A stretch of DNA of 64,000 nucleotides from Alphaproteobacteria bacterium. Lineage in GTDB: Bacteria > Pseudomonadota > Alphaproteobacteria > MPNO01. Position 1 is the first letter of the stretch, and each line of letters begins with the position of its first letter. Below, piece after piece: positions 3,858 through 59,844 of this stretch. The position numbers and the translations under genes are program-made. The stretch lies in contig CBDFLJ010000002.1 of the NCBI GenBank assembly GCA_965248835.1, forward strand, positions 1,248,001 through 1,312,000. Direction: 5' to 3'. The notes below the pieces were generated by a model that did no database searches, had not been told where the DNA came from, and saw only the letters and a list, made by a program, of their open reading frames with translations.

Positions 3858-4658
3858 CTATGTCCCGCGGGCCAGCGCCGCGCGGATACCGCATGCCAGG
3901 GTCTGCCAGGTCTCGCCGTCGGGGGTCAGCAAAAGCCCCTCCTGGTGCTTGCGGCCGGGTCGGTAGGGCGCGCCGTCGAGGCATGCGTTGAAGCCGCCCG
4001 CCTCGTGGTGGAGGAGCTGGCCCGGTGCGTGATCCCACGGTTTCAGGCCCCTGTAGAAGGCGAAATGGGTCACCCCGGCGCCGAGCGCGAGGTAGTCGAC
4101 CCCGCAGCACCGGTTGTTGGTCACCCCGGCGAAGCGCCCGCTGAAGGCGCGGTCGCGGCGCAGCCGTGCGCCGAGCGCCCCGGTCATCGCGCTCTCGGGG
4201 GCCGTTCCGGCGACACTCAGCCGCGCGCCGTCGCGCCAGGCTCCGGCACCGCGCTCCGCGACCGACATCGAGCCGGCCAGCGGATCGTAGATCCAGCCGG
4301 CTTCCGTCCGCCCATCGACGACGAAGGCGACCATGACCGTGAAGTCCGGCTTGCCGTCGGCGAAGTTCGCGGTGCCGTCCACCGGATCGATGATCCACAC
4401 CGCTCCCGGCTGCTCGAGCGCGGTGAGGATCTCCGGATCGGCCTCGCAGGCCTCTTCGCCGACCACAAGCGCATCGGGTCGGATCCCGGCCAGGCCCTTG
4501 CCGAGCGCGGCCTCGGCGCATTCATCGGCCACGGTCACGACCGAGCCCGGTCGCTTTTCCCAGGACTCCGCTTCGCTCAGGCGCTTGAAACGCGGCAGGA
4601 TTTCGGCCTCGGCGACCTCGCGGATCAGCCGGGTGACCGCATCGATGTCTGGGAACAT
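3858..4658 (-). CDS. Inositol monophosphatase family protein
   Basis: VTVAD, GEE, WIIDPVDGTANF, PWDHAPG motifs. Confidence 0.9.
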   Translation of the reverse strand: MFPDIDAVTRLIREVAEAEILPRFKRLSEAESWEKRPGSVVTVADECAEAALGKGLAGIRPDALVVGEEACEADPEILTALEQPGAVWIIDPVDGTANFADGKPDFTVMVAFVVDGRTEAGWIYDPLAGSMSVAERGAGAWRDGARLSVAGTAPESAMTGALGARLRRDRAFSGRFAGVTNNRCCGVDYLALGAGVTHFAFYRGLKPWDHAPGQLLHHEAGGFNACLDGAPYRPGRKHQEGLLLTPDGETWQTLACGIRAALARGT

Positions 4659-4724
4659 GAAAGCGACTTCGTCGAGGGCGGGCGGTGCGGCGCACCCTCG
4701 CCGCAGTCGGGCGGGATTGCAACG

Positions 4725-4756
4725 AAAAAAGGAGGGCCGTCATCGGACGGCCCTCC
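4725..4756 (-). terminator. Rho-independent terminator of groESL
   Basis: 11-bp perfect stem GGAGGGCCGTC/GACGGCCCTCC with 4-nt loop, followed by a U6 tract on the minus strand just downstream of groEL. Confidence 0.85.
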
Positions 4757-4798
4757 GCTGTATTGCGCGGCCTGTGAAACCGGCCGCAGGACGGTGTG

Positions 4799-6761
<1,963 letters not shown>

Positions 6762-54406: not shown

Positions 54407-57400
54407 TCAGGCCTCGATCACCGAAGATACGCCGCTGAGTGATCCGAGGCGGTCGGACGCCTCGGCCGGCACCGCATAACCGCCCGGCAGCACCAGTTCG
54501 ACCTCGCGGGCAGCCTCGATGCCGATCACCAGGCTCACCCGGCCGCAGCCGGGCTGCCATGCCGCGATCTGGCCGCGCACGCTCTCTAGACAGTCCGGAT
54601 CATCGATGCGGACCTGAATCCCGGTTTCAATCCGTTTGACGACCTCGTCCAACGCCTCGATCTTCTGGGCCATCAACCGAACGCCCTCGCCGTCGGAGCG
54701 GACCTCGGCGGTGACCAGCACCCGTGCGTTGGGCTCCAACAACGCGCGCGCGCCGGCCAAGAGCTCCGAGAACGCGAGCACCTCGTATGCCCCGGCGGTG
54801 TCGGCGAGCCGGATATAGGCAAACCGGTTGCCCTTGGACGAGGTCCGTTCCTGGCGCCCGAGAACGACCCCGGCAAGCCGCTTGGTGTCGCCCTGGGCCA
54901 CCTCCGCCACGGCATTGGAAGGGACCACGCGAAGCCGGCTCAGCCGCGCGCCGTAGGCATCCAGCGGATGGGCGGAAAGATAGAAACCCACCGCCTCGAA
55001 CTCCTGGTCGAGCCGTTCCATCGGCGACCAGTCGGCGATGTCGGGACGGCCCGCCCCAAGCGGTGCGAGCTCCCTGGCGGCCTCGCCGAACAGGTTGGCC
55101 TGGCTGGTCTGGCGCTCCTCGGCCGCGGTCTGTCCGAGCTTCGCCAGGAGATCGATGCTCTCGAAGAGCTGCCGCCGGTTGGGGTTCAGGCAATCCAACG
55201 CACCCGCGCGCACCAGGTTCTCCATCTGGCGGCGGTTGGCCATCCGCCCGCCCAGGCGGCGAGCGAAATCGAACTCGTCGGTGAACGTGCCGTTCCGCTC
55301 GCGCTCGTCGAGAAGGTCGGCCATCGCCTGTTCGCCGACATTCCTGATTGCCGCAAGGGAATAGCGGATCGCAGGCTTTGCGGCGCCGTTGCTGGCCGGC
55401 TCGACTGCGAACGAGACTTCCGACCGGTTGACGTCGGGCGGCAGCAACGGCACGCCGAGACGGTCGAGCTCGTGGCGAAACGCACTCAGCTTGTCGGTAT
55501 TGCCGACATCGAGCGACATCAGGGCGGCCAAGAACTCGACCGGGTAGTTGGCCTTCAACCAAGCGGTCTGGTAGGCGACCAGCGCATAGGCCGCGGCGTG
55601 AGACTTGTTGAAACCGTAGCCGGCGAACTTGTCGACCAGCTCGAAGATCTGCTCAGCCTTGGCGGCATCGACCCCGCGGGCGGTGGCACCTTCGACGAAG
55701 GCGCCGCGCTGGGCCTTCATCTCGGCCTTGATCTTCTTGCCCATCGCGCGCCGCAGCAAGTCGGCTGCGGCCAGGCTGAAGCCCGACAGGCGCTGGGCGA
55801 TCTGCATGACCTGTTCCTGATAGATGATCACGCCGAATGTCTCGCGCAGGATCTCTTCCAGGTCCGGATGCAGGTAATCGGGCTCCTCACGGCCGTGCTT
55901 GCAGGCGTTGTAGCGTGGGATGTTGTCCATCGGCCCGGGCCGGTAGAGCGCGACCAGAGCGATCAGGTCCTCGAAGCAATCGGGCTTCATCTGGCGCAGT
56001 ACGTCGCGCATGCCCGCGCTTTCCATCTGGAACACCCCGGTGGCATCGCCGCGGCCGAGCATCGCGTAGGTCGCCGGATCGTCGAGCGGCAGGGACAGCA
56101 GGTCGGGCGGGCTTTCCCGTCGGGCGATAAACTTCAGCGCCCTGTCGAGGACGGTGAGCGTCTTCAGTCCAAGAAAGTCGAACTTCACCAGACCGGCCAA
56201 CTCGGTGTATTTCATCGAGAACTGGGTCGCCGGCAATTCCGAACGCGGATCGCGATAGAGCGGGATCAGTTCCGTCAACGGCCGGTCGGCGATCACCACG
56301 CCCGCAGCATGGGTCGAGGTGTGGCGGTATAGGCCTTCCAGTTTCATCGCGATGTCGATCAGCCGGGCGACGGTCTCGTCGCCGTTGCGGATCTGGCGAA
56401 GCTGCGGCTCCTGCTCCAACGCCTGGGCCAGTGTCGGCGGCTTGGCCGGGTTGAACGGCACGAGCTTGCAGATCCGGTCGACCTGGCCGTAGGGCATGCC
56501 GAGGACACGACCGACATCGCGCAGTGCCGCACGGGCCTGGAGGGTCCCGAAGGTGATGATCTGGGCGACCCTGTCGGCGCCGTACTTGTCCTGAACGTAG
56601 GCGATCACCTCGTCGCGCCGGTCCTGGCAGAAGTCGATGTCGAAGTCCGGCATGGAGACCCTGTCCGGGTTGAGGAAGCGCTCGAACAGGAGGCCGAACC
56701 GCAGCGGATCGAGGTCGGTGATGGTGAGCGCCCACGCAACGACGGATCCGGCACCGGAACCGCGCCCGGGACCGACCGGGATGTGCTGCTGCTTGGCCCA
56801 TTGGATGAAGTCGGCAACGATCAGAAAATAGCCCGGAAAGCCCATCGAAATGATCACGTCGAGCTCAAATTCGAGTCGTTCGAAATAGGGTTCGGGATCG
56901 ACGTGCAATTTCGCCAACCGCGCCTCGAGCCCCGAACGGGCGGCCGCGCGCAGCGCATCGGCCTCGCTCCTGCCCTCGGCGTCTTCGAAGCCGGGCAGGA
57001 TCGGATCGTGGGGCCGGGGCATGAAGGCGCAGCGTTGGGCAATCACCACGGTGTTGTCGACCGCTTCGGGCAGGTCGGCGAAGACCGCGCGCATCTCCGC
57101 TGCATCGCGAAACCGATGGTCGGGTGTCAGCCGCCTGCGTTCGGTATCGGCGACGTGGGTGCCCTGGGCGATGCACAGCAGCACGTCATGGGCCTCATAC
57201 ATCGAGGCGTCGGCGAAATAGATGTCGTTGGTCGCGACCAGCGGCAGGTCGTGGGTCATCGCCAGGTCGATCAAGTCATCCTCGATCCGGCGCTCGATCT
57301 CTTCTCCGTGGCGGGTGAGCTCGATATAAAGCCGGCCGGGGAACGCGCCGCGAAGCTGCTGCAGCACCCCGCTCGCCTTTTGCACCTGGCCGTCGGCGAG

Positions 57401-57853
57401 CAACCGTCCCAGCGCGCCCGAAGCACCGCCGGTCAGCGCGATCAACCCTTCCGCACGGGCCTCCACATCGGCGAAGCCGACATGGGGCTCGCCGCCGCCT
57501 GAGTCCAGATAGGCCTTGGTGACCAGTGTGACCAAGTTACGGTAGCCGTCCCGATTCTGAACCAGCAGCACCAGGTTGTCGTGGCCCACCGGCCGGCCGT
57601 TGCGGATGGTGCTGCCGGCATCGGCTTCCATCCGGGCAATCGAGAGCTGGCAGCCGATGATCGGCTGCACGCCGGCCTCCGCAGCAGCGAGCGCGAACTC
57701 GAGCGCACCGAACATGTTGTTGGTATCGGTGACCGCGATCGCCGGTATGCCCTGGGCGACGCAAAGCGCCACCAGGTCCTTAACCTTCAGCGCTCCCTCG
57801 GACAGCGAGTAGGCGGTGTGGGTGCGCAGGTGAACGAAGTCGGCATGGGCCAT
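54407..57853 (-). CDS. dnaE: DNA polymerase III alpha subunit
   Basis: FVHLRTHTAYSL, GPGRGSGAGS, RVSMPDFDIDF, KFDFLGL, YGFNKSH; start trimmed to MAHADF. Confidence 0.98.
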   Translation of the reverse strand: MAHADFVHLRTHTAYSLSEGALKVKDLVALCVAQGIPAIAVTDTNNMFGALEFALAAAEAGVQPIIGCQLSIARMEADAGSTIRNGRPVGHDNLVLLVQNRDGYRNLVTLVTKAYLDSGGGEPHVGFADVEARAEGLIALTGGASGALGRLLADGQVQKASGVLQQLRGAFPGRLYIELTRHGEEIERRIEDDLIDLAMTHDLPLVATNDIYFADASMYEAHDVLLCIAQGTHVADTERRRLTPDHRFRDAAEMRAVFADLPEAVDNTVVIAQRCAFMPRPHDPILPGFEDAEGRSEADALRAAARSGLEARLAKLHVDPEPYFERLEFELDVIISMGFPGYFLIVADFIQWAKQQHIPVGPGRGSGAGSVVAWALTITDLDPLRFGLLFERFLNPDRVSMPDFDIDFCQDRRDEVIAYVQDKYGADRVAQIITFGTLQARAALRDVGRVLGMPYGQVDRICKLVPFNPAKPPTLAQALEQEPQLRQIRNGDETVARLIDIAMKLEGLYRHTSTHAAGVVIADRPLTELIPLYRDPRSELPATQFSMKYTELAGLVKFDFLGLKTLTVLDRALKFIARRESPPDLLSLPLDDPATYAMLGRGDATGVFQMESAGMRDVLRQMKPDCFEDLIALVALYRPGPMDNIPRYNACKHGREEPDYLHPDLEEILRETFGVIIYQEQVMQIAQRLSGFSLAAADLLRRAMGKKIKAEMKAQRGAFVEGATARGVDAAKAEQIFELVDKFAGYGFNKSHAAAYALVAYQTAWLKANYPVEFLAALMSLDVGNTDKLSAFRHELDRLGVPLLPPDVNRSEVSFAVEPASNGAAKPAIRYSLAAIRNVGEQAMADLLDERERNGTFTDEFDFARRLGGRMANRRQMENLVRAGALDCLNPNRRQLFESIDLLAKLGQTAAEERQTSQANLFGEAARELAPLGAGRPDIADWSPMERLDQEFEAVGFYLSAHPLDAYGARLSRLRVVPSNAVAEVAQGDTKRLAGVVLGRQERTSSKGNRFAYIRLADTAGAYEVLAFSELLAGARALLEPNARVLVTAEVRSDGEGVRLMAQKIEALDEVVKRIETGIQVRIDDPDCLESVRGQIAAWQPGCGRVSLVIGIEAAREVELVLPGGYAVPAEASDRLGSLSGVSSVIEA

Positions 57854-57947
57854 GGCGGCATTGAAGATACCGGCCATGCGGGCGAATCAACAGATCCGCC
57901 CGTCGTCCCGGGAAATCAAGATGTGGACAGTTTCGGGCCGGCGGGCG

Positions 57948-59048
57948 TTAGCCCGGCTTGTGCCTGAACGTGTTGACCGCCGAGCCGAAACCGCTGAGCC
58001 CGAGCCGTGCGCGCAGATCCTCGGTCGCCTTCAGGACCATGTCGTCGACGGGGATGCCGAGGCCGTTGGCGATCCGGTCGTTCTTGGTGAAATTGCCCGC
58101 AATCGCCGCGGCTCCGGCAACGGCTGCCGGTCCCAGCGCCTCGCTCAACGCGGTGCGCGCGCGCTCCAGCGCAGCGAGGTCCGCGCCGACCACGGCATCG
58201 GCGTAGGCCAGCAGCACGGCGCCTGCCGGCACGCCGCTGTCCACTTCCGAGCGCATCAGAGCCTCGAGATCGATGTCCAGATCGGCGACTCGTCCACTCT
58301 CACGGAGGAACCTGGCATGGCCGGTGGTTCAGTAGAAGCAACCGTTCAAGGCCGAGATCCGGCCGGCTACGACCTCCGCCTGGACCCGAGCCAGCCCTTC
58401 GTGGTGCCGGTAGTCGTATTCCAGGATACGATGAAGCGGCAGGTATTGGGCCTGTTCCAGCGCCAGATGCAGGCGCAACTCCTCGGGCACCAGACTCATG
58501 GCACGGACGATGTAGGGCATCGGACGACCGCCATAGAGCGCCTCGCCGAGCGCTCTGCCGTCGGGGCCGTTGGGAACCGTCGGCACCCAGGCCAACTCCT
58601 GAACCGCTTCCGCCGGGCGTTCGCGGCTTGGCCGACCGGGCTCGGCTGCCGGCAGCGGCCGCAGCGGCACGCCGATCCCGCGCGCGAAGACATCGATGTT
58701 GGTAATGCGCGAGACCAGACCGATGATCTCGACATACTCGGCGTCACCGAGCCCGTCCTTCAGCGCATCCCGGCAGAACGCCTCGTCGACATCGCCGAGC
58801 GAGAACGCAACCGCTCGGACGACCCGGCGCACCACCTCGGGAAGCTCGGTCTCGACCGCGGCCCCGCCATCGGCGGGCTCTTCGAGGACCCCGGCGTCGT
58901 ACCCCGCCTGCCGGGCTTCGGCTGCGACCGCCAATCGCTGGGCGCCCGTCCCCCACGTCCCCGGCGCGCCCCAACCCGATAGCTGAGTCGCATGGGTCGC
59001 GGCCAGATCGTCCCGCACCGGATAGGCGGAATCCGAATAGAGGCTCAT
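57948..59048 (-). CDS. AhpD/carboxymuconolactone decarboxylase-like alkylhydroperoxidase, predicted selenoprotein (366 aa, Sec at codon 240)
   Basis: ORFs 58329-59123 and 57948-58256 share a frame, separated only by TGA at 58331-58329; read-through gives EVVAGRISALNGCFY-U-TTGH, the AhpD CxxC-xxx-H motif; AAGGAG RBS before the ATG at 59048. Confidence 0.82.
58283..58328 (-). promoter_or_regulatory. Candidate bacterial SECIS hairpin
   Basis: UUCCUC-CGUGA-GAG(U)GGA stem-loop; loop begins 24 nt after UGA with G at loop position 2; possible lower CGGC/GCCG pairing; folded by eye. Confidence 0.55.
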
Positions 59049-59157
59049 CCACTCTCCTTGCGGGCTGCGTTCGGGTCCGAATTTACCGGGTGAAACAGTC
59101 TGAGAAGCCCCCAGGTCTGTCAATCCCGTGAACTCGCCGGCCGATCACAGTTCCGCG

Positions 59158-59844
59158 CTATGACCGTCGGATCAACCCGTCCTCGAGTACCAGGCGACGG
59201 TCCATGCGCTCGGCGAGCTCCGGGTTGTGGGTGGCGATCAGGGCGGCGGCACCGCGGCCACGGACAATCTCGACCAGGAGCTCGAAGACCGCGCCGGCGG
59301 TCCGACGGTCGAGGTTGCCGGTCGGCTCGTCAGCGATCAGCACGCTCGGCTCGTTGGCCAGCGCGCGGGCGATCGCCACGCGTTGTTGCTCGCCGCCAGA
59401 CAGCCGCGCCGGACGGTGGCTTGCCCGATCGGCGAGCCCAACCTGGGCGAGCAGCGCCTCGGCCATACCGCGCGCAGTGCGCCGCGCCGCCCCGTCGATC
59501 ATCCGCGGCAGGGCGACGTTTTCCAGCGCGGAGAACTCGGGCAGCAGGTGGTGGAACTGGTAGACGAAGCCGAGTTCGGATCGGCGCAGCGCGGTGCGGC
59601 GGTCATCGCTCATCTCCGCGCAGTCCTCGCCGGCCAGACGGATCGAGCCGGCGCTCGGCCGATCGAGAAGCCCAGCGATGTGGAGCAGCGTCGACTTGCC
59701 GGCGCCCGAGGGTCCGACCAGGGCGACGATCTGGCCGGGATGGATCGCCAGCGATACGCCGCGCAGCACCTCCAGCCCGCCGCCCGCCTGGGCGTATATC
59801 TTGCGGATATCTTCCATTGCGAGCGCCGGGACGGGCTCAGCCAT
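59158..59844 (-). CDS. lolD: Lipoprotein-releasing ABC transporter ATP-binding protein
   Basis: [39 protein letters not shown]. Confidence 0.95.

Follow-up and report, generated by a model that had tools for sequence, protein, structure and literature searches.

A UGA-interrupted gene between lolD and dnaE of an alphaproteobacterium almost certainly encodes a 366-residue selenoprotein of the NF041238 family

The DNA analyzed here is a 64,000-nucleotide stretch of an alphaproteobacterial genome (assembly GCA_965248835.1, contig CBDFLJ010000002.1, positions 1,248,001 to 1,312,000), referred to below as the window. Its minus strand carries a gene with an internal TGA codon, placed between lolD and dnaE. 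The features of the locus are the following, in window positions:

59158..59844, minus strand: lolD (ABC ATPase), the upstream neighbor, outside the system; orthologs 70 to 91% identical to it adjoin lolC in relatives
59054..59059, minus strand: Shine-Dalgarno sequence AAGGAG, separated by 5 nt from the ATG at 59048 (direct sequence reading)
57948..59048, minus strand: selenoprotein gene, member of NF041238; 366 codons plus a TAA stop, with no further stop when TGA is translated as U
58317..58376, minus strand: active-site segment E225 ... C237-F-Y239-U240-T-T-G-H244 with the AhpD-type proton-relay residues (alignments of 36 homologs and of 1gu9)
58329..58331, minus strand: in-frame TGA, codon 240, predicted selenocysteine (Sec) at the second position of C237-x-x-U240 (translation and sequence reading)
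58292..58311, minus strand: SECIS-type hairpin of 7 bp in which one U is bulged; its apical loop of 5 nt, CGUGA, lies at 58300-58304 (folding and family alignment)
54407..57877, minus strand: dnaE, the downstream neighbor, outside the system; an ORF of 1156 aa, 89% identical to dnaE of the same-genus genome G002

From the ATG at 59048, 239 sense codons can be read, ending in ...EVVAGRISALNGCFY directly before the TGA. Past this codon the frame goes on as TTGHARFLRESG... for 126 codons, up to the TAA at 57948-57950. The earlier note, made from the letters of this DNA, had joined the 239-codon ORF and the 126 further in-frame codons into a protein of 366 aa, which translation with TGA as U reproduces; its coordinates, its residue numbers C237 and U240 and the flanking genes that it named are likewise correct by frame translation and the ORF list. 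A promoter and terminator scan of both strands between 57700 and 59400 found neither.

The single internal TGA lies in the motif C237-F-Y-U240-T, the CFYUT that gave a curated NCBIfam family its name: NF041238, "AhpD_rel_CFYUT," an equivalog-level model for an "alkylhydroperoxidase-related (seleno)protein." The read-through protein matches this model with 356.8 bits against a curated cut-off of 175 bits, residues 11-355 covering model positions 1-356 of 357, and the match runs straight across codon 240. A six-frame search of the genome with the same model returned the window copy at 348.2 bits. Among Pfam models, CMD (PF02627) gives a marginal match at residues 210-284 (26.6 bits; gathering threshold, 23), and it was the only match in a scan at E values up to 0.1. 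Two neighboring assignments were rejected, AhpD proper (TIGR00777; 21.1 bits versus a cut-off of 191.95) and the "AhpD-like protein" or "peroxidase-related" family (TIGR01926/COG2128; 27.4 bits versus 81.8).

The description of the product as an "AhpD-like selenoprotein" in the earlier note thus fits as far as the CMD/AhpD superfamily is meant, but not for the published family that bears the name "AhpD-like protein." Like the window protein, those selenoproteins carry CxxU within a domain of the CMD superfamily and are distributed among marine and proteobacterial sources, according to the accessible text of two surveys (PMC1088965 and PMC2398784), but they are single-domain proteins of about 180 residues. 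The window protein belongs to a separate family, first called "hypothetical protein 1." Under this name, the available text of Zhang, Fomenko and Gladyshev (2005; PMC1088965) describes four sequences with a conserved CXXU motif and SECIS-like structures, with no functional evidence. In the available part of a 2026 review (PMC13188914), NF041238 is equated with "hypothetical protein 1" of the Sargasso Sea selenoproteome, and this row is kept apart from the row "AhpD-like protein, TIGR01926." The 2008 GOS analysis (PMC2398784), in the portion available, places both AhpD-like 1 and AhpD-like 2 among the most frequent marine selenoproteins. No characterized member of NF041238 or "hypothetical protein 1" was found in the literature, within the accessible text of these sources, where the family appears as a predicted selenoprotein of unknown function. 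Since the model is curated and named after the CFYUT motif, and the literature reaches back to 2005, the gene is of an already known kind, its family having counted as one of selenoproteins since that year.

The residues around codon 240 correspond to the catalytic site of AhpD. In a phmmer search against PDB sequences, residues 211-276 align to Mycobacterium tuberculosis AhpD (1gu9), placing E225, C237, Y239, U240 and H244 on E118, C130, H132, C133 and H137. The published account of the P. aeruginosa PA0269 structure (PMC3141380, in the part available) gives exactly these five residues as the AhpD proton relay and reports that PA0269 carries Tyr in place of His132; the window protein likewise has a Tyr (Y239) there. 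Across 36 aligned homologs, E225, C237, position 240 and H244 do not vary, and conservation of Y239 is at least 90%.

An AlphaFold2 model built on the homolog alignment is all-helical and of high confidence (pLDDT, 95.3; pTM, 0.94). Structural alignment with VIA-align places AhpD/CMD structures on residues ~150-350, the C-terminal lobe, with Z scores of 8.3 to 12.6. Foldseek against the PDB returned nothing at E values of 0.001 or below, its best matches being AhpD-core proteins (E values of 0.03 to 0.07; probability, 1.00). M. tuberculosis AhpD (1gu9/1knc), the adaptor reductase of AhpC, shares the helical CMD/AhpD fold (Z, 8.3; rmsd, 2.7 over 137 residues) and, residue for residue, the proton-relay spacing E-x11-C-x-x-C-x3-H. 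It differs in that the window protein has Sec for Cys133 and Tyr for His132, the latter as in PA0269, has double the length and an additional N-terminal lobe, and has no ahpC neighbor that we could see.

The best whole-chain match in VIA-align is human Sestrin2 (5cuf), with 245 residues aligned over model residues 1-333 (Z, 17.1; rmsd, 3.2); as helical folds inflate Z, this likeness is to be read as one of architecture only. Sestrin2 consists of two fused AhpD-like lobes, and the window protein is predicted to have a similar intramolecular pair of AhpD-like helical lobes. Sequence identity is 12%, and the Pfam scan at E values up to 0.1 gave no match to a Sestrin family model. The redox cysteine of Sestrin2 lies in its N-terminal lobe, whereas the CxxU of the window protein lies in the C-terminal lobe. 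The second-best match is the debrominase Bmp8 (6ohi), a reductive dehalogenase of the CMD family and, as such, a Cys-based enzyme of the same fold (Z, 12.6; rmsd, 2.9; 175 residues). The two are 15% identical, and nothing in function or gene context was found to connect them; all that the match shows is that Cys chemistry on the CMD fold extends beyond peroxides. We take the model to predict a two-lobed, Sestrin-like AhpD architecture.

The family match and the model also bear on whether the locus holds two genes, one that ends at the TGA and has a product of 239 residues, and a second one further downstream with a start of its own. The ORF list under translation table 11 does contain such a pair, an ORF of 264 or 239 aa and another of 102 aa that starts from an ATG 25 codons past the TGA. 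Against this, both the CMD domain and NF041238 cross the TGA, a division there would split the motif C-x-x-[U]-x-x-x-H, the predicted structure forms one compact unit, and a Cys-form homolog (L069, described below) is one continuous ORF through the codon-240 site. We regard the two-gene arrangement as the least probable of the explanations weighed here, with next to no likelihood.

The genome holds four further NF041238 paralogs outside the window, each with a single in-frame TGA at the homologous site; all five copies read C-x-Y-U-T around it. In the coordinates of their own loci, the paralogs are the following:

L021, 1465-2559, plus strand: NF041238 paralog, one TGA, N-terminal CxxC
L022, 1498-2592, minus strand: NF041238 paralog, one TGA, N-terminal CxxC
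L023, 1447-2559, plus strand: NF041238 paralog, one TGA, N-terminal CxxC
L024, 1465-2571, plus strand: NF041238 paralog, one TGA, N-terminal CxxC

They are 31 to 40% identical to the window copy. Beyond this genome, 79 related loci were collected by scanning one genome per species, in species other than that of the window, with two peptide patterns. One of the patterns ended in Cys, which means that a bias in the sampling, if any, would have disfavored TGA. The homologous codon is TGA in 78 of the 79 loci and TGC (Cys) in the remaining one, L069. This alignment, which the earlier note had proposed as a check for a conserved TGA or a TGA/Cys pairing, therefore yields both: TGC stands at the same codon in L069, Cys occupies the position in distant CMD/AhpD proteins, and the homology extends to both sides of the UGA. 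The sole Cys form, at L069 4001-4933, comes from an actinobacterial metagenome-assembled genome (MAG) and has neither the sequence of the SECIS hairpin nor the L-R-x-S peptide nor the region with the N-terminal CxxC.

NF041238 matches above the cut-off occur in 32 of 41 genomes of the same order, and all 100 of the over-cut-off matches listed from these genomes contain one TGA. One of the 100, the ortholog at G012:C1:2147504-2148538, has an in-frame TAG in addition to its TGA, and this copy may be broken. Genomes of the lineage carry four to six Sec-containing NF041238 copies each. In several of the genomes surveyed, two NF041238 genes lie only a few kilobases apart as tandem or near-tandem duplicates, as at L038 (3418 and 4727), L056 (4727 and 8518) and L067 (4727 and 7202), and also on G003:C66 and G024:C34.

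Because one curated model spans both sides of the TGA, and the TGA recurs at the homologous codon in nearly all of the related loci, the arrangement is far beyond chance. The internal TGA is real, and it almost certainly encodes selenocysteine in a 366-residue redox protein. The same evidence weighs against a pseudogene in which a Cys codon (TGC or TGT) mutated to TGA, leaving a truncated 239-residue product or none. The TGC of L069 makes a Cys ancestor conceivable, and the window copy has the lowest NF041238 score of the five in its genome (348 bits), but a decaying copy would not be expected alongside the TGA counts given above, in 78 of the 79 loci and in 100 of the 100 listed matches, nor with 126 open codons past the TGA that match NF041238 up to position 356 of 357.

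Decoding of UGA as Sec depends on a dedicated machinery, and the two contigs of the genome (4.89 Mb) were searched for its genes, as had been suggested earlier. All are present: selA (517 bits), selB immediately downstream of it (444 bits), selD (309 bits) and the tRNA-Sec gene selC (74.7 bits; anticodon TCA by ARAGORN). On the genome's other contig, selA, selB and the tRNA-Sec gene (L001/L002/L013) are clustered within about 5.4 kb, and selD (L010) is found elsewhere on the same contig. With the Sec machinery complete, an alternative read-through route is not needed, and the "different UGA read-through route" that the earlier note had kept as a branch falls away. Within the window, TGA terminates 18 of 26 long high-GC3 ORFs, including dnaE and lolC; hence, the code is not reassigned. 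Both results speak against UGA read-through without Sec, by near-cognate insertion of Trp or Cys or under a reassigned code, for which we found no support. The nature of the site does so too: it is the redox-active Cys position of AhpD, of the type where Sec replaces Cys.

The RNA downstream of the TGA adds to this picture. In the window copy, the hairpin begins 17 nt past the TGA and, counted from the U of UGA, takes up positions 21-40. Its apical loop is separated from the UGA by 24 nt, a distance that reportedly falls within the range accepted by the bacterial SECIS search rules of bSECISearch. The family structure was derived from an alignment of the 66 nt from the TGA in 78 Sec-form sequences, in which columns 21-27 pair with columns 33-39 around a 5-nt loop, C-G-U-G-N. 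This helix is 87% paired, versus 29 to 50% when the 3' arm is slid by one to three columns. Double changes occur in four of the seven pairs, and the covariation score was reached by none of 500 shuffles; RNAalifold independently finds the inner five pairs. At the corresponding place in the Cys-form L069, the sequence is unrelated. Compatible with the general SECIS pattern, a stem-loop thus lies shortly past the UGA with a conserved G in its apical loop, its stability by itself not being significant.

The window copy and its orthologs form the hairpin with a bulged U in the 3' arm, which accounts for the five "CU" mismatches at pair 24-36 of the family alignment. Down to the wobble positions, all 13 orthologs have the same 21-nt core, GTTCCTCCGTGAGAGTGGACG, at a protein identity of 57 to 66%, and the codons neighboring it vary at synonymous sites among the same 13. 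As the stem is invariant within this group, its support there comes from conservation and not from covariation. The stem overlaps the conserved peptide L-R-x-S, so part of the conservation may act at the protein level, and RNA and protein constraints are not fully separable. Taken alone, the window hairpin does not stand out in stability (-5.9 kcal/mol; z, +0.33): of 200 shuffled sequences, 121 reached an equal or better folding energy, and minimum-energy folding of the first 60 nt past the UGA did not recover it in the window copy. The hairpin of paralog L021 has -10.4 kcal/mol and a z of -3.2. A possible 3-bp lower stem, pairing columns 11-13 with columns 49-51, was considered as well; one compensatory pair in 4 of the 13 orthologs is too weak to claim it.

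The weak folding energy of the window copy is a further point that a pseudogene would explain, but orthologs at this distance have kept both the TGA and the identical hairpin core, and together with the conservation of the TGA this makes a mutated Cys codon very improbable. Read-through without Sec is judged very improbable to the same degree, given also that a conserved SECIS-type hairpin, with G and U in its apical loop, follows the UGA at a constant distance. We therefore consider it very likely that the locus is a single gene for a 366-residue NF041238 selenoprotein, an AhpD-type redox enzyme in which UGA 240 is read as Sec by the cell's own machinery. This agrees with the proposal in the earlier note of a single CxxU selenoprotein, recoded at UGA and belonging to the AhpD/CMD superfamily, for which the model match across the TGA, the TGA conservation, the SECIS hairpin and the 1gu9 alignment now provide the basis.

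The position of the gene was compared among relatives. The earlier note held that the gene interrupts a usual lolD-dnaE adjacency. This is true of a relative of another genus (L118), where lolC, lolD and dnaE are contiguous, but not of the complete same-genus genome G002, where lolD and dnaE are separated by a gap of ~3.1 kb that holds quite different genes and no selenoprotein gene. In that gap (L123 3740-6868), an OmpR-type response regulator of 223 aa, a sensor kinase of 491 aa, a 121-aa protein and an opposite-strand 160-aa protein are encoded, as named from reading their translations. Because relatives carry different genes or none there, the lolD-dnaE interval appears to be a variable slot with several cargoes. 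Neither lolD nor dnaE was found nearby in any of the 79 related MAG loci or of eight ortholog loci from related genomes. The lolD-dnaE position of the selenoprotein gene is lineage-specific and not a property of the family.

Other neighbors recur in places. In one related genus, a glutathione S-transferase (GST) gene lies directly upstream of the ortholog (six loci) and a CMD-family gene downstream (seven loci). At L110, for instance, the GST gene (2069-2935) ends right at the start of the ortholog and the CMD-family gene (4248-4823) follows just downstream on the opposite strand; the arrangement is the same in L107-L109 and L111-L113. In two ortholog loci from MAGs, the gene is preceded by one for a 4Fe-4S protein and followed by one for a flavin reductase. 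None of these four genes (GST, CMD-family, 4Fe-4S protein, flavin reductase) is adjacent to the window copy. No neighbor is conserved family-wide, each neighbor query having matched at most 9 of 94 sources.

The window copy resembles NF041238 in its end-to-end match, its length near the ~357 residues of the model, the C-F-Y-U-T motif, in which U is a UGA codon, and the downstream hairpin. The window copy and its orthologs differ from the family in two respects, the bulged U with its shifted register in the hairpin and the missing N-terminal CxxC. This CxxC (N-A-x-x-C-x-L-C-x-x-R-K) is present in 31 of the 36 aligned members, including the four other paralogs of the same genome; it is absent from the window copy, from its aligned orthologs L027, L028 and L031 and from the Cys-form L069. 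One could imagine that the window gene belongs to a functionally diverged NF041238 ortholog group (at least 13 genomes, with the CxxC lost and an invariant bulged SECIS), which together with the four CxxC paralogs per genome would form a set of substrate-specialized, Sestrin-like two-lobed selenoenzymes, their chemistry possibly being the reductive detoxification of electrophiles or halogenated compounds and not peroxide reduction. The Bmp8 match hints at detoxification chemistry, as do the neighbors of orthologs that encode a GST, a flavin reductase and a nitroreductase, but we consider this extended proposal rather unlikely as a whole.

We infer that the window protein most likely functions in a selenol/thiol oxidoreductase cycle. 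UGA codon 240 would be decoded as Sec by the cell's own SelA, SelB, SelD and tRNA-Sec, with SelB probably directed to it by the short hairpin (loop CGUGA) located 17 nt downstream, inside the F-L-R-E-S-G coding sequence. The C-terminal lobe of the two-lobed AhpD/CMD-fold protein would then carry the redox centre of E225, C237, Y239, U240 and H244. Sec240 may attack an oxidized substrate, either a hydroperoxide or an oxidized peroxiredoxin-type partner, and Cys237 would resolve the intermediate to a selenenylsulfide, which could in turn be reduced by a cellular reductant. These substrates are a guess, since lolD and dnaE are uninformative on function and no neighbor is conserved across the family.

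The relevance of the locus is mainly one of annotation, as default gene callers end at UGA 240 and truncate the protein just before its predicted catalytic residue; reading the raw sequence sufficed to recover the UGA-containing gene correctly. Nothing here alters the current understanding of Sec decoding, and the new details are small: the CxxC-less ortholog group, the lineage-specific position between lolD and dnaE and the Sestrin-like, two-lobed predicted fold. For the lineage, four to six Sec copies per genome suggest a heavy investment in selenium-based redox chemistry, and organisms with so many copies would be a reasonable system for assigning a substrate to NF041238.
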